Shown here: piece by piece, positions 4,031 through 24,624 of the stretch
Layout: every line of letters starts with the position of its first letter
Position numbering within the stretch: position 1 is the first letter of the stretch
From: a virus
Taxonomy: Duplodnaviria; Heunggongvirae; Uroviricota; Caudoviricetes
Reading direction: 5' to 3' (one strand)
Length of the DNA stretch: 24,624 nucleotides
IMG/VR virus record: IMGVR_UViG_2585427758_000008
The notes under the pieces: model-generated
The model's database searches: none
Told to the model about the DNA's origin: nothing
The model's input: the letters and a program-made list of their open reading frames with translations, nothing else
Program-made: the position numbers and the translations under genes

Positions 4031-5694
4031 TGAACAAAGCCAGAGAAACGTCGCCTTCACTGATGCAAATGACGCCTCCCCGCAAAATTGATCTGTCCGG
4101 TGAAAAAGCCCTGCTGGGCGTGGATGTGCCGGACAGCCTTGATTTGCCCGGTGATATGCCGGTGTTTCTGGATTATCAGGCCCGCTGGTTTGCAGATGAA
4201 AGTCAGGTCTGCATCGCGGAGAAATCCCGCCGCACCGGTCTTACCTGGGCGGAAGCCGGGCGTAACGTCATTACTGCTGCAAAACCGAAGCGTCGTGGTG
4301 GCCGCAATGTGTTTTATGTGGGATCAAAGCAGGAGATGGCGCTGGAATATATTTCTGCCTGCGCGCTGTTCTCCCGTGCCTTTAACCAGCTGGCAGATGC
4401 TGATGTGTATGAGCAGACATTCTGGGATCGGGATAAAAAAGAAGAAATTTTGACCTACATGATCCGCTTTCCGAACAGTGGATTCAAAATTCAGGCATTG
4501 TCTTCCCGTCCGTCAAACCTGCGCGGCCTTCAGGGGGATGTGGTGATTGATGAAGCCGCGTTCCACGAGTCACTGGATGAGCTTCTCAAGGCGGCAATGG
4601 CGCTCACTATGTGGGGCGCGCGCGTGCGTATTATCTCCACGCATAACGGCGTCGATAATCTGTTTAATCAGTACATTCAGGAAGCCCGCGAGGGGCGCAA
4701 GGATTACAGCGTCCACCGCATAACCCTGGATGATGCCATTGCGGACGGGCTGTACCGTCGTATCTGTTACGTCACCGATCAGGAATGGTCACCGGAAAGC
4801 GAGCAGAAATGGCGTGATGATCTCTACAAAAACGCCCCGACCCGTGAGGATGCCGACGAGGAATACGGCTGTATCCCGAAAAAATCCGGCGGTGCCTATA
4901 TCCCCCACGCGCTTATTGAAATGGCGATGATCCGCGACATCCCGATTCTGACGTTTGAAGCCCCGGACAACTTCATCAGCCGTGCCGCATGGCTGCGTGA
5001 ATCGGAAGTTTTAACCTGGTGTGAAGAACATTTAAAACCGCTTTTAGAGAAATTAAATCCCCGTTCCCGCTTCAGCTTCGGGGAAGACTTTGCCCGCACC
5101 GGTGACCTGTCCTGCTTTATGCTGCTGGAAATCACCGAATCCCTGGCAAAGCGCGAGGTGTTTCGCGTGGAGCTGCGCAACCTGCCGTATGCCCAGCAGG
5201 AACAGGTGATGATGTACATCCTGACCCGCGTTCCGGCGCTGGTCGGTGCGGCGTTCGACGCCACCGGTAACGGCGGCTATCTGGCAGAGGCCGCACTGCT
5301 GGCCTTTGGCCCGGATATCATCGACTGCGTGATGTTGTCGCCGAAGTGGTACGGCGAGTGGATGCCAAAACTGAAAGCCGAGTTTGAAGATCAGAATATC
5401 CTCGTCGCCCGCCATCAGACCACGCTTGATGATTTGCGCCATGTGAAGGTAGTGAATGGTATCCCGCAAATCGACAAGGGGCGCACGAAGGACCAGAACG
5501 CAACGGCTGCGAACGCCCGCCGCCATGGTGATTTTGCCGTGGCGCTCTGTATGGCAAACCGGGCGTCATACATGGAGGGCTTCATCCTGGATGAATCAGC
5601 CTGTCAGGCGCTACCGGAGCGGTCGCGGGCAATGGAGGGCGGTTATCGTGATGACGATGAGGCATATCATGAATTTGATCGGGGGGGCTGGTAG
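4027..5694 (+). CDS. Terminase large subunit (Mu gp28-like)
   Basis: 555-aa ORF in the expected position and size; contains a DVVIDEAAF segment consistent with a terminase ATPase Walker-B-like motif. Confidence 0.85.
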   Translation: MMNKARETSPSLMQMTPPRKIDLSGEKALLGVDVPDSLDLPGDMPVFLDYQARWFADESQVCIAEKSRRTGLTWAEAGRNVITAAKPKRRGGRNVFYVGSKQEMALEYISACALFSRAFNQLADADVYEQTFWDRDKKEEILTYMIRFPNSGFKIQALSSRPSNLRGLQGDVVIDEAAFHESLDELLKAAMALTMWGARVRIISTHNGVDNLFNQYIQEAREGRKDYSVHRITLDDAIADGLYRRICYVTDQEWSPESEQKWRDDLYKNAPTREDADEEYGCIPKKSGGAYIPHALIEMAMIRDIPILTFEAPDNFISRAAWLRESEVLTWCEEHLKPLLEKLNPRSRFSFGEDFARTGDLSCFMLLEITESLAKREVFRVELRNLPYAQQEQVMMYILTRVPALVGAAFDATGNGGYLAEAALLAFGPDIIDCVMLSPKWYGEWMPKLKAEFEDQNILVARHQTTLDDLRHVKVVNGIPQIDKGRTKDQNATAANARRHGDFAVALCMANRASYMEGFILDESACQALPERSRAMEGGYRDDDEAYHEFDRGGW

Positions 5695-7283
5695 TGGGAC
5701 GCATCATTGATACTGACGGAAAACCTTTCTCCTTTGACCCGGAGATGCAGAGTGCCGCGCTGGATATTCCGCAGATTGCCAGCCGTTATATTGAACATCC
5801 GGCTTCGGGTATCACCCCGAACCGGGCGGCGCAGTGCCTTCGCGGGGCTGAACGTGGCGATCTGATTGCCCAGTCCGATCTGGCCGCTGATATTGAAGAA
5901 AAGGACACCCACCTTTTTGCGGAGCTGGGCAAGCGACGTCTTGCCATTCAGGGGGTGCCATGGAGTATTGAGCCGCCACCGAACGCCAGCGCGAATGAGA
6001 AAAAGGACGCGGAAATGCTCGACGAATATCTGCATTCCGCAGACTGGTTTGATGCCATGCTGTTTGACGCCACGGATGCCATCCTGAAGGGCTATTCCTG
6101 CATGGAAATTGAGCACGGGATGCTCGGTAAAATGCACATCATCCGCGCCATCCGCTGGCGTGACAGCGGGCATTTCTGCCTTAACCCGGATGATTTGAGC
6201 GAACTGCGGCTGCGTGACGGCAGCCATGCCGGGGTGGCGTTTCAGCCTTTTGGCTGGATAGTGCATCAGTCACGTTCACGGACCGGTTACGGTGGCGCAA
6301 CGGGGCTTGTCAGGACGCTTATCTGGCCGTTCATTTTCAAAAACTATTCCGTGCGCGATCTGGCCGAATTTCTGGAGGTGTACGGACTGCCGATGAAGGT
6401 CGGGAAATACCCGTCCGGGGCAACACCGGAGCAGAAAAGCGCCCTGATGCGGGCGGTGATGGATATCGGGCGACGTACAGGCGGGATCATCCCGGCCGGG
6501 ATGTCGCTGGAATTTCAGGCGGCAGCAAACGGGCAGGCCGATCCATTTGAAACCATGATTTCGTGGGGGGAGCGTTCCATCTCCAAAGCAATACTCGGCG
6601 GCACGCTGACCACGGAAGCCGGAGACAAAGGCGCGCGCTCGCTGGGTGAGGTGCATAACGAGGTGCGCCGGGAAATCAGGGATTCTGATTTACGGCAGCT
6701 GGCTGCAACCCTGAACCGCGATCTGGTGTATCCGCTGTACGCCCTGAACACCACGCACACTATTGATATCCGCCGTCTGCCACGTATCTGCTTCCAGACC
6801 AAAGAACCAGGTGATATCACCAAAATCACCAGTGCGGTGATGCAGCTCAGTACGGGGATGGATATTTCTGATCCCTGGATACGGGAGCAGACCGGTATTC
6901 CGCAGCCCACGCCCGGTGAAGCCATATTCCGTGTCCGTCAGAGTGGCAATGAACCGGCTCAGACCGACAGGGAAACACCACCGGAAAAACAGGAAAAAAC
7001 AGAGCAGACGGCGCTGTCAGCCAGACTGCCGGAAGCGAAAAGCACGCCGCGTGATGAACTGGATGATATGGGGGACGCGGTGCCTGCCCGCCGCTTACAG
7101 GAGGCCATCGACCCGGTACTGGAGCCGGTCATTGATGCCATCAGAACGCGGGGGCTGGCGGATGCGCTGGCAGACCTGCCTGCCCTTTATCGTGAAATGG
7201 ATGATTCCCGCCTGATGACGCTGCTCAGTGATGCCATGTTTGCTGCGGAAATGAAGGGGATGCTGGATGACACAGGGGATTGA
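5694..7283 (+). CDS. Portal protein (Mu gp29-like)
   Basis: 529-aa ORF directly after the large terminase; apparent GTG start overlapping the terminase stop (TAGTG); acidic C-terminal region. Confidence 0.8.
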   Translation: MGRIIDTDGKPFSFDPEMQSAALDIPQIASRYIEHPASGITPNRAAQCLRGAERGDLIAQSDLAADIEEKDTHLFAELGKRRLAIQGVPWSIEPPPNASANEKKDAEMLDEYLHSADWFDAMLFDATDAILKGYSCMEIEHGMLGKMHIIRAIRWRDSGHFCLNPDDLSELRLRDGSHAGVAFQPFGWIVHQSRSRTGYGGATGLVRTLIWPFIFKNYSVRDLAEFLEVYGLPMKVGKYPSGATPEQKSALMRAVMDIGRRTGGIIPAGMSLEFQAAANGQADPFETMISWGERSISKAILGGTLTTEAGDKGARSLGEVHNEVRREIRDSDLRQLAATLNRDLVYPLYALNTTHTIDIRRLPRICFQTKEPGDITKITSAVMQLSTGMDISDPWIREQTGIPQPTPGEAIFRVRQSGNEPAQTDRETPPEKQEKTEQTALSARLPEAKSTPRDELDDMGDAVPARRLQEAIDPVLEPVIDAIRTRGLADALADLPALYREMDDSRLMTLLSDAMFAAEMKGMLDDTGD

Positions 7284-8598
7284 TTTAGGTTATGCCGCCA
7301 CGCTTCCCTCAAAAGAGGCGGTAGCATACTTCCGTGTCAAAGGGGCGCATATCAGCTGGAACTGGTTCGAAACAGCCGCGGATGTTCATGCCCGCTCATT
7401 CACGGCAGCAAAAGCGGCACGCCTGGATGTGGTGACCACGTTACAGGCCGAAGTGCAGCGGGCCATTGATGAGGGAATTTCACAGAAAGCATTTATCCGC
7501 ACGCTGACGCCACGCCTGCAAAAGCTGGGATGGTGGGGAAAGCAGATTGTGGTGGACAGCGACGGTAACGCGGAAGAAGTGCAACTGGGCAGTCCCCGTC
7601 GTCTGGCGCTGATTTACAACGTGAACACCCGTGTGGCTTACAATGCCGGGCGTTACACGCAGATGATGAACAACACGGACACGCATCCGTTCTGGCAGTA
7701 TGTGGCGGTCATGGACAGCCGTACCCGCCCGTCGCATTCCGCCCTTAACGGTCTGGTATTCCGCTATGACGATCCGTTCTGGAAAACACACTACCCACCT
7801 AATGGCTGGAACTGCCGCTGCCGTGTGCGGCCATTGTCTCAGGCTCGTCTGGATGCAATGGGGTTATCCGTTTCATCCGGTGAGGATCATCTCTCCACCC
7901 GCAATGTTGAGGCTGGCGTGGATAAACAGACCGGAGAAGTCAGAGAAATGCCGGTGACCACATATTCAGATGGCACCAGAACCATGACACCGGATGTGGG
8001 CTGGTCATATAACCCCGGCTCGGCAGCGTTCGGCACAGACCAGGCGCTGATCCGCAAACTGATCGAGGTGAAAAGCCCGGCGTTACGGGAAATGGTGGTT
8101 CAGGAGATGAACAACAGCCCGGAGCGGCAGCTGGCGTTCCGCATCTGGGCAAAAAACATCATGCAGACCCGGCGAGGTGGTAACGATATCCGCACGCTGG
8201 GCTTTATGACTGAAAGCATTGCGCAGGCAGTGGAAAGCCGGACGGGAACGCCACCGGCCCGCCTGCTGGCGATGAGCGGTAAAAATGTGCTCCATGCAGA
8301 CAGTGTGAAACATCAGAATGACGGCATCGCCCTGATGCCAGAGGACTTCGGGCGCTTACCGGCAATGCTGGCAAAGCCAAAAGCGGTGCTGTGGGACAAA
8401 CGGCACAAAAATCTGATGTATATCGTGGAAAATAAGGATGGCAGTGTGCAGATTGCCGTTAATGCACCGTACAGTCTGAAACGTCAGCCCGACAAACTGG
8501 ATGTGATTGTGAATGCTTACCGGGTTATCAATATGGATAAGCTGAAATCGGATATCCGGGGCGGAATGCTTGAGGTGCTGGAAGGACAAATTGATTAA
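7267..8598 (+). CDS. Mu F-like head morphogenesis protein (gp30-like)
   Basis: 443-aa ORF containing the MuF-type segment PFWQYVAVMDSRTRPSHSALNGLVF...NGWNCRCRV; position after the portal as in Mu. Confidence 0.75.
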   Translation: MTQGIDLGYAATLPSKEAVAYFRVKGAHISWNWFETAADVHARSFTAAKAARLDVVTTLQAEVQRAIDEGISQKAFIRTLTPRLQKLGWWGKQIVVDSDGNAEEVQLGSPRRLALIYNVNTRVAYNAGRYTQMMNNTDTHPFWQYVAVMDSRTRPSHSALNGLVFRYDDPFWKTHYPPNGWNCRCRVRPLSQARLDAMGLSVSSGEDHLSTRNVEAGVDKQTGEVREMPVTTYSDGTRTMTPDVGWSYNPGSAAFGTDQALIRKLIEVKSPALREMVVQEMNNSPERQLAFRIWAKNIMQTRRGGNDIRTLGFMTESIAQAVESRTGTPPARLLAMSGKNVLHADSVKHQNDGIALMPEDFGRLPAMLAKPKAVLWDKRHKNLMYIVENKDGSVQIAVNAPYSLKRQPDKLDVIVNAYRVINMDKLKSDIRGGMLEVLEGQID

Positions 8599-22227: not shown

Positions 22228-22778
22228 CCCTGACCCCGCATCAGCGCGCCCTGTTGCAGTTACTGCCTGACGGGCTGGCATGGGACAAGCGTCCGTCATC
22301 CGTACTGGCATCATTATGTCTGGGCCTCAGTCATTCGACAGCGCGTGTATCCTGGACGGGTAAACAGCTGCTTGCCGAGCGTTTCCCTGACACGTCGCGC
22401 CTGCTGCTGGAAGACTGGGAGCGTTATCTCGGGCTTCCCGAGTGTGATATGGCCGGAGCCACCCTCACGGAGCGACAGCGTTATGCCGGAAATAAATACC
22501 GGATGAAGCCCTCGCTGAACCGTGAATTTTATATCCGGTTTGCGGCGGAGTTTGGTTATCAGATTGACATTCAGCCCTCACCGGATTCGCAGTGGGTCAG
22601 TATTGTCACGATTAACAGTGAAACCGGCTACCGGAATATGAATGTGCTGGATGATATTCTCACGCCGCTGCGTATTTATGAAGGCGGTGCGCTGGAATGT
22701 ATTCTGAACCGTTATAAGCCTGCATGGCAGACGTTTATTTACGTTTATGCAAACAGCCATGAAGAGGAGACTATTTAA
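22218..22778 (+). CDS. Tail protein, Mu gp48 / YmfQ-like
   Basis: 186-aa ORF between the baseplate J gene and the tail fibre gene. Confidence 0.7.
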
Positions 22779-23668
22779 TGTTTCATGTTGATAATAATTC
22801 CGGCGTGGCGAATATGCCTGCGCTGGCACCGGCGCAGAGTAATACCACCACCTGGTTTACCGAAGGTGACGGACAAAAAGGTATCAGCTGGATTGGTCAG
22901 GACTGGCTGAATATTCTCCAGGCCGAACTGCTGAATATTCTGGCTGAAGCCAGTATTCAGCCGGATAAGGCGCAGTTAAACCAGCTTACGCTGTCCATTA
23001 AAGCCATTATCGCTGCGAATGCCTTTTCCCGGAAAAATAACCTGAAAGAAATTGCTGATGCCGGTGCGGAGGCCCAGCGTCTGGCCCGTGGTTATCTTGG
23101 TCTGGGGACGCTTGCCACAAAAAACAGTCTTGGTCCCGCTGACGTTAATGCCCTGGCGAAGGATCAGAATCTCGCCGACCTGGAGAATAAGGGAACCGCC
23201 CGTAATAATCTGGATGTTTACAGCAAAAGCGAAGGTGATAACCGTTACCTGCGCAGGGAGCAGAACGGCGCAGACATTCCGGATAAAGGGGCTTTTATCG
23301 ATAACGTCGGTTTACGGGAAACGGTAAACAGGGCGGCGAATGCCCTGCCATCGGACGGCACCGCCGTTGCCGCGAATAGACTCGCCACCCCAAGAAATAT
23401 TAATGGGGTTCCCTTTGACGGGACGCAGGACATAAACATCACTTCTGGTATAACACAGCAGGATGCGGATTCCCGATATATCCAGGATATCAGGCTGGGA
23501 GCAGAGAACAGGCAGGTAATGTACGGTGGGGCATATTACTCTGCGTACGGTAATGTTATGGCAGGCCTGCAGATTGACAGTAAAGTTGATGCTTCAAACG
23601 ATTTTATAGCATTCAGACCCCTGCAAAAATTAGTCGGAGGTACATGGATTACGGTATCTCAGTTATAA
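22778..23668 (+). CDS. Tail fibre protein S: constant N-terminal part joined to the variable C-terminal part currently in the expressed orientation
   Basis: 296-aa ORF; the recombination site lies at codons 173-181, so roughly the first 177 codons are outside the invertible segment; C-terminus ...[18 protein letters not shown]. Confidence 0.8.
23295..23320. other. gix/hix-like 26-bp recombination site for a serine DNA invertase (left boundary of the invertible segment)
   Basis: TTATCGATAACGTCGGTTTACGGGAA; its reverse complement matches the Mu gix site as I recall it (TTCCTGTAAACCGAGGTTTTGGATAA) at about 22 of 26 positions. The inner half is repeated in inverted orientation at the window edge. 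Confidence 0.6.
23308..23376. repeat. Inverted repeat (69 bp exact) at the left inner end of the invertible segment
   Basis: Exact reverse complement of 24556..24624, checked base by base. Confidence 0.85.
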
Positions 23669-23719
23669 ATAGTCAGTAAATAATATATTTTAAAACAGAT
23701 TTATTTCCAGGAGGATTTT

Positions 23720-24241
23720 ATGGAACTAAAAAATATAACCCGTTATTATCCTGAAAATATGCCATATGGTAATAATGTTCAGTATTTCCAGAGTGAAGAT
23801 GGTAAGGATTTCTACGAATCCCTGCCATTATTCACCAAAAAATATAAACTTTGCATAACACCTGACAGCGGCGTTATCTGCTCAATATCACAGGACGCCT
23901 CGGCGCTGTATCCTGCGGGGTTTTCTGTGGTTGAGGTCGATGAACTCCCTGAAGGCACGGATATTTCAGGAAACTGGAAGTTTGATAATGGCATAATCTC
24001 CCGTATTCCGGTTAACTACGCAAGAAAACTGGAAGCAATGCGCCAGTCATATCTTAATCAGGCATATGAAAAAATTAATGACTGGAGAACGGAGCTACAA
24101 CTGGGCACCATCAGCGATGAAGACAGAGCAGCACTTACCCAATGGATGGCATACATCAGTCAGGTGAAGAAAATGGAACTACCCGCCATTAAAACAGAAG
24201 CTGAATTTAACGCCATTAAATGGCCTGAGCAGCCACAGTAA
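23720..24241 (+). CDS. Tail fibre assembly protein (Mu U-like)
   Basis: 173-aa ORF directly after the fibre gene with AGGAGG RBS; AT-richer than its surroundings. Confidence 0.8.
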   Translation: MELKNITRYYPENMPYGNNVQYFQSEDGKDFYESLPLFTKKYKLCITPDSGVICSISQDASALYPAGFSVVEVDELPEGTDISGNWKFDNGIISRIPVNYARKLEAMRQSYLNQAYEKINDWRTELQLGTISDEDRAALTQWMAYISQVKKMELPAIKTEAEFNAIKWPEQPQ

Positions 24242-24244
24242 TAA

Positions 24245-24264
24245 AGAAGGCCGGAAGGCCTTCT
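24245..24264. terminator. Bidirectional hairpin between the convergent tfa and alternative fibre reading frames
   Basis: agaaggcc - ggaa - ggccttct, an 8-bp stem, lying in the 31-bp gap between two converging stop codons. Confidence 0.5.
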
Positions 24265-24272
24265 GAATATCA

Positions 24273-24624
24273 TTATATACTTGCAGCCGTCACCCATGCT
24301 CCATTTAACAGATACTGCAACGGCCGGTAATACACGCCGCCGACGTTATCTGCCGTATTCTTACCGACATCCTGTACTTTAATTCCGGTAAGAACATTGC
24401 CGCCCCCCAGATTCAGATCCCAGCTTTCCCATGTTCCGGGCATATGTGCGGTCACCGACCCCAGTCTTATGGCGGTTACTGTTCCTGATGAGATAGTGAT
24501 ATCCTGCGTCCCGTCAAAGGGAACACCATTAATTGTGTGGGCATTTGCCAGCCTGTTCGCGGCAACGGCGGTGCCGTCCGATGGCAGGGCATTCGCCGCC
24601 CTGTTTACCGTTTCCCGTAAACCG
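24273..24624 (-). CDS. Alternative tail-fibre C-terminal variable segment, minus strand, 5' part beyond the window
   Basis: Minus-strand frame open from the window edge to a stop at 24273; encodes ...[18 protein letters not shown]...YRPLQYLLNGAWVTAASI, parallel to the C-terminus of S. Confidence 0.65.
   Translation of the reverse strand, partial: GLRETVNRAANALPSDGTAVAANRLANAHTINGVPFDGTQDITISSGTVTAIRLGSVTAHMPGTWESWDLNLGGGNVLTGIKVQDVGKNTADNVGGVYYRPLQYLLNGAWVTAASI
24556..24624. repeat. Inverted repeat at the right inner end of the invertible segment, truncated by the window edge
   Basis: Exact reverse complement of 23308..23376; the last 13 bases ttcccgtaaaccg form the inner half of a second gix/hix-like site. 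Confidence 0.85.

Follow-up and report, generated by a model that had tools for sequence, protein, structure and literature searches.

Results

A tail-fibre gene with two alternative tips

Near its right end the window, by which we mean the whole 24,624-nt stretch of DNA analyzed (IMG/VR record IMGVR_UViG_2585427758_000008), carries a tail-fibre gene S (22778..23668, + strand), which in the current orientation encodes 296 aa and is a shortened homologue of Mu S. The protein matches phrog_1833 'tail fiber protein' over its full length (E 4e-129) and the Mu tail fibre S of PDB 5yvq_A (E 4.9e-51) in two blocks, residues 1-198 corresponding to Mu S 1-191 and residues 229-294 to Mu S 435-502. Its constant part, Sc (22778..23306, +; ~176 codons), matches Mu S 1-191. 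This N-terminal part lies outside the invertible segment described below, and the alternative C-terminal parts lie inside it. Variable tip A (Sv; 23309..23668, +) is fused to Sc and has a tip domain homologous to the Mu S tip; because it is the one currently joined to Sc, tip A is the expressed tip. Variable tip B (S'v; 24273..24624, − strand) is silent in the present orientation; its open frame comprises 116 codons and a stop and extends to the window edge. A virtual flip of the segment gave a fibre of 293 aa with the same sequence as the protein labelled S' in NZ_OZ547136.1. Sc is therefore in frame with either tip, and both fusions are full length (296 aa with tip A, 293 aa with tip B). About 230 complete E. 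coli genomes share Sc at 92-100% identity, whichever cassette comes next.

The S stop is followed by an AT-rich spacer of 51 nt (23669..23719, +), in place of which Mu has 2 nt; no sigma-70-like site was found on the + strand of this spacer. It leads to tfa (23720..24241, +; 173 aa), the sole tail-fibre assembly chaperone gene and a homologue of Mu U, whose product matches Pfam Caudo_TAP (E 4.8e-19), phrog_136 (E 4.7e-56) and Mu U in PDB 5yvq_B (E 4.2e-16). The folds of the fibre and Tfa follow from their sequence matches to Mu S, S' and U, whose structures are solved. Both the fibres and the Tfa complex are oligomeric. The stops of tfa (24241) and tip B (24273) are only 31 nt apart, and between these two convergent genes lies a GC-rich, terminator-like hairpin (24245..24264, −) followed by TTATTACTGT. 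Judged by its structure the hairpin may act as a terminator, with the number of terminator-like sites in the window at chance level.

Recombination sites and inverted repeat

The left recombination site (23295..23320; sites and repeat arms are given without strand) is a 26-bp gix-like sequence inside the fibre gene, reading TTATCGATAACGTCGGTTTACGGGAA, with the central crossover dinucleotide TC at 23307-23308. It is identical to the gix site of phage Mu (AF083977, TTATCCAAAACCTCGGTTTACAGGAA) at 22/26 bases and was the sole position in the whole window to score at least 17/26 against it, the control of 100 shuffles giving a best score of 20 and a mean of 16.4. As the reverse complement it reads TTCCCGTAAACC-GA-CGTTATCGATAA. 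The right site is present with its inner half and first core base, 13 nt in all (24612..24624; TTCCCGTAAACC-G), and the remainder, A-GGTTTTCAGGAA, falls outside the window. Of the two central crossover bases the first is 24624, with which the window ends, and the window edge runs exactly between them. In E. coli relatives 99.6-99.9% identical over the region the right site is completed as TTCCCGTAAACC-GA-GGTTTTCAGGAA, which is identical to Mu gix at 21/26 bases. The two sites are inverted with respect to each other, and each consists of two imperfect 12-bp half-sites flanking the identical 2-bp core.

From the left core inward, positions 23308-23376 are the exact reverse complement of 24556-24624, a stretch of 69 nt, and the repeat extends to 78 nt at 96% (left arm 23308..23385; right arm 24547..24624, which pairs with it); when the window was shuffled 30 times, the longest exact inverted repeats measured 14.8 nt on average and 18 nt at most. 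The left arm codes for the conserved start of the variable part. A second, weaker left arm (23399..23448), 84% complementary to 24484-24533, is still coding sequence common to both tips. In the relatives the arms stay identical for exactly one base past the window end, which is the second base of the core; beyond it the identity ends, since the outer halves of the two sites are different (5/12 positions here). From core to core the segment measures 1,319 bp. In one locus, L018, the core has changed in a matched way: both sites have TT, whereas the core of every other locus is TC.

The original prediction of a 26-bp gix/hix-like site in S is borne out by these data, as are the proposed contents of the segment, namely the variable 3' end of S, tfa and an alternative C-terminus on the opposite strand, all of which are found in the sequence. 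The predicted 69-bp exact inverted repeat is real; its supposed start at the centre of the site is an effect of the window edge.

Inversion between otherwise identical prophages

In two E. coli strains, NCCP 13983 (L004) and FORC_029 (L005), the prophage is the same and has inserted at the same place in the chromosome, and the two loci are identical over 18.6 kb apart from the 1,319-bp segment, which in one is the exact reverse complement of the other. The left gix-like site is the breakpoint of this inversion. Arm-specific markers at 20, 23, 25 and 38 nt inside the core had all moved with the segment, so that the exchange must have taken place in the outermost 19 bp, made up of the core, the inner half-site and 5 bp further in; the position of the exchange is thus resolved to 19 bp and not to the 2-bp core.

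Both orientations were also seen in larger collections. Among 5,426 complete E. coli genomes the Sc-tipA junction was present in 6 and the Sc-tipB junction in 23, and among viral contigs, which fell into four segment-length classes, the numbers were 4 and 13. Each allele group shows both orientations.

A predicted invertase beyond the window edge

In E. coli loci 99.6-99.9% identical to the last 1.8 kb of the window, a gene for a 190-aa serine invertase starts 79 nt after the last base of the window, and a Gin-family invertase always adjoins the right site in complete loci. The invertase of the relatives matches Pfam Resolvase (PF00239, E 1.6e-51) and HTH_7 (PF02796, E 4.9e-15), aligns end to end with the solved Gin (PDB 4m6f and 3uj3, E 2.5e-88) and is 72% identical to Mu Gin. 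None of the NCBIfam models was specific to the fibre or to Tfa, and against other serine-recombinase models of that collection the invertase scored only below the cut-off. In one near-identical relative, DLI.5a (L001), the invertase is frameshifted. The genome from which the window derives probably carries an intact copy, the gene lying outside the window.

The residues S9, K46/R47/K50 of helix B, H106 and M114 are all present in the invertase of the relatives. We take H106 of Gin to be the equivalent of His107 of Hin, and the wild-type H106/M114 to be the Fis-dependent form. The roles of Ser9, of M114 and of helix B with its enhancer-contacting basic residues have been described (PMC3575834, PMC3798978). 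The stretch from the site into the 5' part of the invertase gene is 82% identical to its Mu counterpart. A recombinational enhancer is ~65 bp long, acts in cis from the 5' part of the invertase gene and has a Fis site at each end, with an expected spacing of 48 bp between them. We searched the invertase gene with a strict Fis pattern and then with a relaxed G-N13-C pattern at 48-bp spacing. AT-centred 15-mers of the G-N13-C type occur at positions 94 and 140 of the gene, a spacing of 46 bp, and also in Mu gin; the O157 allele is without them. The switch may depend on Fis and an enhancer.

Several parts of the original prediction concerned the flip itself and the DNA past the right edge. The segment of about 1.3 kb that was expected to flip has its exact length in the core-to-core distance and its inversion in the NCCP 13983 and FORC_029 pair; the swap of the fibre C-terminus agrees with the two in-frame products, and the existence of both orientations with the genome and contig counts. 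The outer half-site and the roughly 190-aa serine invertase were found where they had been placed, as seen in the relatives, the window's own copy of the invertase being outside the view.

A single chaperone gene and a locked lineage

Exactly one tfa was present in 17 of 17 complete relatives, always co-oriented with tipA, and a second tfa, one per tip as with U and U' of Mu, is absent from the segment. Tfa of one type (90-91% identical) accompanies tips that are only 26-42% identical in their variable parts. The correlation of Tfa alleles with tip alleles was similar for the two tips (r 0.73 for tipA and 0.69 for tipB), values that are confounded by shared ancestry.

Some relatives form a locked lineage in which the right site, tip A and the invertase are all missing; 7 of 7 such loci are in the tipB-on state. 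There tipB is expressed and tfa is antisense yet intact, with a dN/dS of 0.10-0.23 at a dS of 0.11-0.43, which suggests that tfa is under purifying selection in this lineage. Scans for sigma-70 promoters and terminators around tfa in the window, upstream of the invertase and in one locked locus gave counts at chance level throughout.

One possible interpretation, which we hold tentatively and at somewhat less than even odds, is that having one chaperone gene is a working arrangement: a Tfa of fairly generic specificity would serve both tips and would be supplied in either orientation, perhaps through a promoter of its own located in the AT-rich spacer or close to it. The constant single tfa, its upkeep in the locked lineage and the pairing of one Tfa type with diverse tips favour this interpretation. 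Alternatively, tipB may fold without Tfa, or Tfa may arrive in trans from other prophages; likewise, the divergence of tfa among the locked loci may have come from recombination with invertible relatives. If the one-chaperone reading is right, such a segment is a more compact solution than that of Mu, P1 and e14, in which the genes are paired as S-U / U'-S'.

Discussion

We conclude that the region is very probably the part of a Mu-like (Sp18-type) E. coli prophage that inverts to change host range, run by a serine DNA invertase of the Gin/Pin/Hin family. Two inverted 26-bp gix-like sites, the left one inside the fibre gene and the right one at the window edge, bound the 1,319-bp segment. In the mechanism we propose, dimers of the invertase would bind both sites and cut at the central 2-bp core (TC/GA), and one pair of half-sites would be rotated and religated, leaving the segment reversed. 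The late operon would then read from Sc into whichever tip faces it, giving Sc-tipA followed by tfa in the present orientation and Sc-tipB in the flipped one, and the outcome would be virions with two alternative receptor-binding tips. Tips A and B presumably bind different receptors. For the source genome, invertase activity is a prediction and as such unproven, as the window contains neither the gene nor the right-hand outer half-site.

A static inverted duplication, in which two paralogous tip cassettes face each other, no active flipping occurs and the gix-like sequence is a relic, would account for the fact that part of the inverted repeat is coding sequence shared by the two tips, and the invertase is indeed lost or broken in some relatives (the L001 frameshift and the locked lineage). 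We give it almost no credence, however, in view of the exact inversion between otherwise identical 18.6-kb loci, the occurrence of both orientations within each allele group, the abrupt end of arm identity at the core dinucleotide and the matched core change in L018. Inversion by RecA-dependent homologous recombination between the 70-130-bp repeats, and not by the invertase, is also very improbable. The 69 identical nucleotides of the window arms are enough for rare homologous exchange, but the exchange between L004 and L005 fell in the outermost 19 bp, which is the gix-like site, and not in the longer identical block of 32 bp (positions 39-70); in addition, a conserved Gin-family invertase stands beside the right site in every complete locus, and the lineage that has no invertase is fixed in one state.

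An invertase-driven switch could still be a remnant in this particular genome. An IS4-family element interrupts the lysozyme gene of the window's prophage copy, so that the prophage may no longer release phage and the switch may be without consequence here. Flipping in such a defective prophage would have no effect on phage host range, and if the switch has kept a role it would be one that serves the host, such as making a fibre-derived protein that blocks other phages. A fibre-derived block of this kind has been reported for the e14 P segment and PinQ, and inversion of the e14 P segment creates StfE2, a blocker of T2 adsorption (PMC12529663). We consider this unlikely, at perhaps one chance among several, because the fibre, baseplate and tfa frames of the window are all intact and nothing here indicates a host-side function. 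The remnant explanation bears on the consequence of flipping and not on its mechanism.

One of the closest known systems is the G segment of Mu with Gin (S-U / U'-S'). The position in a Mu-type late region is the same, with gp47 and gp48 ahead of the fibre gene and the invertase gene after it. Mu S has its homologues in Sc and the tip domain, and Mu U in Tfa; the core is likewise GA/TC, the sites are identical to gix at 21-22 of 26 bases, and the crossover falls at about the same fibre codon (177 here, 170 in Mu). The segment is much shorter, however, 1,319 bp as against ~3 kb, and the fibre has ~295 aa as against 504 or 488 aa in Mu because the shaft is missing. There is one tfa where Mu has U and U'. 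The two 26-bp sites of Mu are identical, whereas here the outer half-sites differ and the repeat runs inward for 70-130 nt; and DUF6645, DUF1378 and DUF826 lie between the invertase and com/mom in the relatives. SfMu was considered as the closest relative and rejected, since it has a full Mu-type G segment.

The layout is that of Sp18 of E. coli O157:H7 Sakai: Sc, site, tipA, tfa, reversed tipB, site, invertase and DUF6645. We found it at an O157:H7 locus (L006) and in 17 viral contigs. Sc of Sp18 is ~92-94% identical in DNA, but its alleles are different (variable parts of the tips ~38-42%, Tfa 61% and invertase 80% identical) and its segment measures 1,377 bp. The invertible host-specificity region of Sp18, with genes distinct from those of Mu, has already been described (PMC2669165). 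The e14 P segment, inverted by PinE and also by PinQ and PinR, is likewise a small serine-invertase switch in the tail-fibre genes of an E. coli prophage, and e14 has a gp48-like gene, YmfQ, upstream; its P segment, however, is 1,797 bp long with two tfa genes, tfaP and tfaE, and the site sequences quoted for it (TTGGTTTGGGAGAAGG) are unlike the sites here (PMC12529663). The H segment of Salmonella shares the recombinase subfamily and the 26-bp sites with a 2-bp core, and Hin uses a Fis-dependent enhancer located toward the 5' end of its gene (PMC3798978). In that system the inverted piece contains hin itself and a promoter governing flagellin, whereas here coding sequence is swapped and the invertase lies outside.

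The family occurs in ~230 of the 5,426 complete genomes of E. coli, O157 and further STEC among them, and Mu-like prophages of 225 genomes match the window all the way from base 1341 to its end. A megablast search of the phage GenBank collection gave two partial hits, both to Sc alone in Mu-like inserts of Stx phages, and no complete phage record with the present cassette. Switching of tail-fibre tips by serine invertases is textbook knowledge from Mu G, P1 C and e14 P. The Gin-type switch described here is real but ordinary, its mechanism being known since phage Mu and the family having been noted with Sp18, and the conceptual gain is little. Its use lies in the material: the family supplies natural isogenic genome pairs in both states, and the compact one-chaperone layout together with a naturally locked derivative is convenient for studying how Tfa recognizes fibre tips. 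Public annotation misses the switch: its parts go under the names 'recombinase family protein', 'phage tail protein (partial)' and 'hypothetical protein', and antisense ORFs are annotated in error. Assemblies are also interrupted at the recombination site; 12 draft contigs stop 150 nt or less from the crossover.

Recombination sites at the ends of the segment

The 26 bp at 23295-23320, inside the tail-fibre gene S, read TTATCGATAACGTCGGTTTACGGGAA and agree at 22 of 26 positions with the gix site of phage Mu (TTATCCAAAACCTCGGTTTACAGGAA, read directly from AF083977), which bears out the original prediction of a gix/hix-like site. All other positions in the window scored below 17/26, and 100 shuffled versions of the window gave best scores of at most 20 (mean, 16.4). 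The 69 nt from 23308 are the exact reverse complement of 24556-24624, the final bases of the window, far above the longest exact inverted repeats found across 30 shuffles (average, 14.8 nt; maximum, 18 nt). A repeat finder extended this inverted repeat to 78 nt at 96% and detected a second pair of arms at 84% (23399-23448 and 24484-24533). The repeat runs inward because the fibre tip expressed in the window orientation (tipA) and the silent tip on the minus strand (tipB) open with the same coding sequence.

The continuation in two full-length relatives, L001 (DLI.5a) and L004 (NCCP 13983), completes the right site as ...TTCCCGTAAACC-GA-GGTTTTCAGGAA, 26 bp in inverted orientation, and therefore the end of the window falls exactly between its two central bases. 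The identity between the segment ends reaches one base beyond the window end, to the second core base, and stops there. Thus the repeat does begin at the site centre as seen in the window, but this start reflects the position of the window edge and not the biology. The outer half-sites of the window-type segment differ from each other, whereas both 26-bp sites of Mu are identical. In the relative L018, the core is TT instead of TC at both sites (4952-4977 and 6327-6352); recombination by serine invertases generally needs identical cores, and this is therefore a matched change.

An invertase gene next to the right site in relatives

When 22778-24624 was searched by megablast against complete E. 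coli genomes, the whole stretch was present in five at 94-99.9% identity, and many more matched only 23290-24624. Near-identical relatives contain both elements expected just to the right of the window, namely the outer half-site and a serine recombinase of about 190 residues: a 190-aa ORF begins 79 nt past the last base of the window. Its product matches Pfam Resolvase (E 1.6e-51) and HTH_7 (E 4.9e-15), has 'DNA invertase' as the top PHROG match, can be aligned from one end to the other with Gin structures (4m6f, 3uj3; E about 1e-88) and is 72% identical to Mu Gin. It retains Ser9, the basic helix-B residues K46/R47/K50, M114 and H106, the last of which we take to be the equivalent of Hin His107. 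The roles of S9 (catalytic), M114 and the helix-B residues have been described (PMC3575834, PMC3798978).

Mu gin is directly followed by com/mom, whereas in the window family the invertase is separated from com/mom by genes for a DUF6645 protein (684 aa; phrog_143, of unknown function), DUF1378 and DUF826 (11354-14025 in L004; 1610-4281 in L002, NZ_OZ547136.1). In L001 (NZ_CP103972.1 3510223-3524069), which is nearest to the tail end of the window (99.9%), the invertase is frameshifted and there is a large internal deletion: the early genes up to DUF2730 run directly into a partial gp48-like gene, with loss of the head and tail genes. Judging from its sequence, this copy is a remnant.

Inversion between the two cores

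Over the full length of the window the nearest genome is L002 (99.4%), in which the segment is reversed with respect to the baseplate genes and the two junctions are reciprocal and lie at the central GA. The predicted flipping of a segment of about 1.3 kb was seen most clearly in NCCP 13983 (5,189,943 bp) and FORC_029 (5,189,944 bp), which carry one prophage with the same fimbrial usher gene as insertion site. Over 18,600 bp the two loci differ only in the core-to-core stretch of 1,319 bp, where one is the reverse complement of the other without a single mismatch. The repeat arms can be told apart here by differences 20, 23, 25 and 38 nt inward of the core. Since each of these four markers travelled with the segment, the exchange is confined to the outermost 19 bp, made up of the core, the inner half-site and a further 5 bp. 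Homologous recombination between the repeat arms would favour a longer block of identity, 32 bp, further into the repeat, but the exchange lay outside this block, and we regard such an origin of the inversion as highly improbable.

Gin-type site-specific inversion, the classical mechanism, is the best supported one, and we hold it with high confidence. Invertase dimers would bind both sites and cut both strands at the 2-bp core, one subunit pair would rotate, and religation of the ends would leave the segment reversed, so that the late transcript would continue from the constant 5′ part of S (Sc) either into tipA, then tfa, or into tipB. Inversion is predicted to depend on Fis. In the source genome the invertase would lie beyond the window, and activity of the switch in this copy is predicted from its relatives.

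Both orientations also occur among genomes and viral contigs. Queries spanning the junctions detected the full-length Sc-tipA junction of the window in 6, and the Sc-tipB junction in 23, of 5,426 complete E. coli genomes. The viral-contig collection held 17 complete segments, with length classes reported as four (1,318/1,319, 1,377 and 1,427/1,428 bp); tipA was expressed in 4/17 and tipB in 13/17, and both states were found within allele groups. The tipB-on state is thus about 3-4 times commoner than tipA-on in raw counts that ignore strain kinship, despite tfa then being antisense to the fibre gene. Twelve related draft contigs (L028, L031-L036, L040, L043, L044, L059, L086) stop less than 150 nt from the crossover; this is indirect evidence, consistent with assemblies breaking off at a repeat or at a site of mixed orientation.

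Fibre tips and tfa

The variable 3′ end of S, a tfa gene and an alternative fibre C-terminus on the opposite strand were all found between the arms, as anticipated. The fibre ORF (22778-23668, +; 296 aa), whose 3′ end lies between the arms, is a shortened homologue of Mu S: in the match to PDB 5yvq_A (E 4.9e-51), residues 1-198 pair with positions 1-191 of Mu S and the tip, 229-294, with positions 435-502, while the shaft of about 240 residues is absent. The tipB frame (24273-24624, −; 116 codons plus stop) is open as far as the window edge. A virtual flip of the segment gives an in-frame protein of 293 aa with the same sequence as the annotated S′ of L002, so that the flip swaps the fibre C-terminus. 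Both fusion products match phrog_1833 over the full length, and tipA, tipB and the Mu tips have in common a terminal motif, RP-Q, four residues and W, near the C-terminus. The two tips may differ in receptor specificity.

The tfa gene (23720-24241, +; 173 aa; Pfam Caudo_TAP) encodes a homologue of Mu U (PDB 5yvq_B, E 4.2e-16). Within 23450-24241, G+C is 0.45 in the variable part of tipA and 0.425 in tfa, against 0.563 for the whole window, a composition consistent with exchange of the cassette from a different source. The 31-nt gap between the convergent tfa and tipB contains a GC-rich hairpin (24245-24264; AGAAGGCC-GGAA-GGCCTTCT), terminator-like on the minus strand, that would end the fibre transcript in the tipB-on state.

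Public annotation serves the switch badly (L001 7496-7913; L006 4771-5658): it places short 'hypothetical protein' ORFs within tipB and antisense to it, and treats the silent tip as a partial pseudogene. In L006, the O157:H7 locus, the fibre frame is stop-free from 4771 to its end, yet is not annotated as one gene.

Comparison with known switches and the single tfa

In Sp18 of E. coli O157 this region has already been called invertible, with genes distinct from those of Mu (Asadulghani et al., PMC2669165), and L006 has exactly the layout of the window with different cassette alleles. The window switch is therefore another allele of an already noted invertible region, and its mechanism is well known. 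SfMu was ruled out as the closest relative, as it carries a full Mu-type G segment (PMC4406740). The segment, at 1.3 kb, is smaller than Mu G (~3 kb) and the P segment of e14 (1,797 bp, PMC12529663). Each tip comes with a tfa of its own in Mu (U and U′), P1 and e14 (tfaP and tfaE, PMC12529663), whereas the window-type segment has one tfa for two tips.

In 17/17 complete relatives (L009-L052) and in O157:H7, this single tfa points the same way as tipA and runs towards tipB. Seven viral contigs (L010, L011, L012, L014, L020, L027, L030) form a locked lineage with one common ancestral deletion, in which tipA and the right site are lost together with most of the invertase (L026 coordinates 6457-7431) and ~130 nt of unrelated sequence stand in their place; Sc is fused to tipB, and tfa is antisense. 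Their tfa is intact, and dN/dS of 0.10-0.23 at dS 0.11-0.43 indicates purifying selection. In addition, one Tfa type (90-91% identical) occurs with tips merely 26-42% identical in their variable parts. Together with the single tfa, these observations suggest, tentatively, that one rather generic Tfa might serve both tips and be supplied whatever the orientation. Promoter scans around the window tfa, upstream of the invertase and in a locked locus gave nothing above chance. Neither the one-chaperone layout nor the locked lineage was found described in the literature searched; both are small variations.

Prophage setting and window ends

The switch lies in the late region of a Mu-like prophage: from base 1341 to its end, the window finds counterparts among the tail, baseplate, gp46, gp47 and gp48 genes of such prophages in 225 genomes. 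The first part is an IS4-family element (2-1342): inverted repeats (CATAAGCGCTAACTTAAGGGTTG) form its ends, at 2-24 and 1320-1342, and it encodes a transposase of 372 aa (ORF 173-1291, −); from the terminal repeats we presume it to be IS186-like. All matches to Mu-like prophages begin at base 1341, which is inside the lysozyme CDS of an intact relative, and the element therefore interrupts the prophage lysozyme gene. This copy is probably lysis-defective and may release no phage at all. On the left the window begins one base before the IS, and on the right it breaks off between the two core bases of the right site; both ends lie at repeat boundaries, as expected of a short-read contig.
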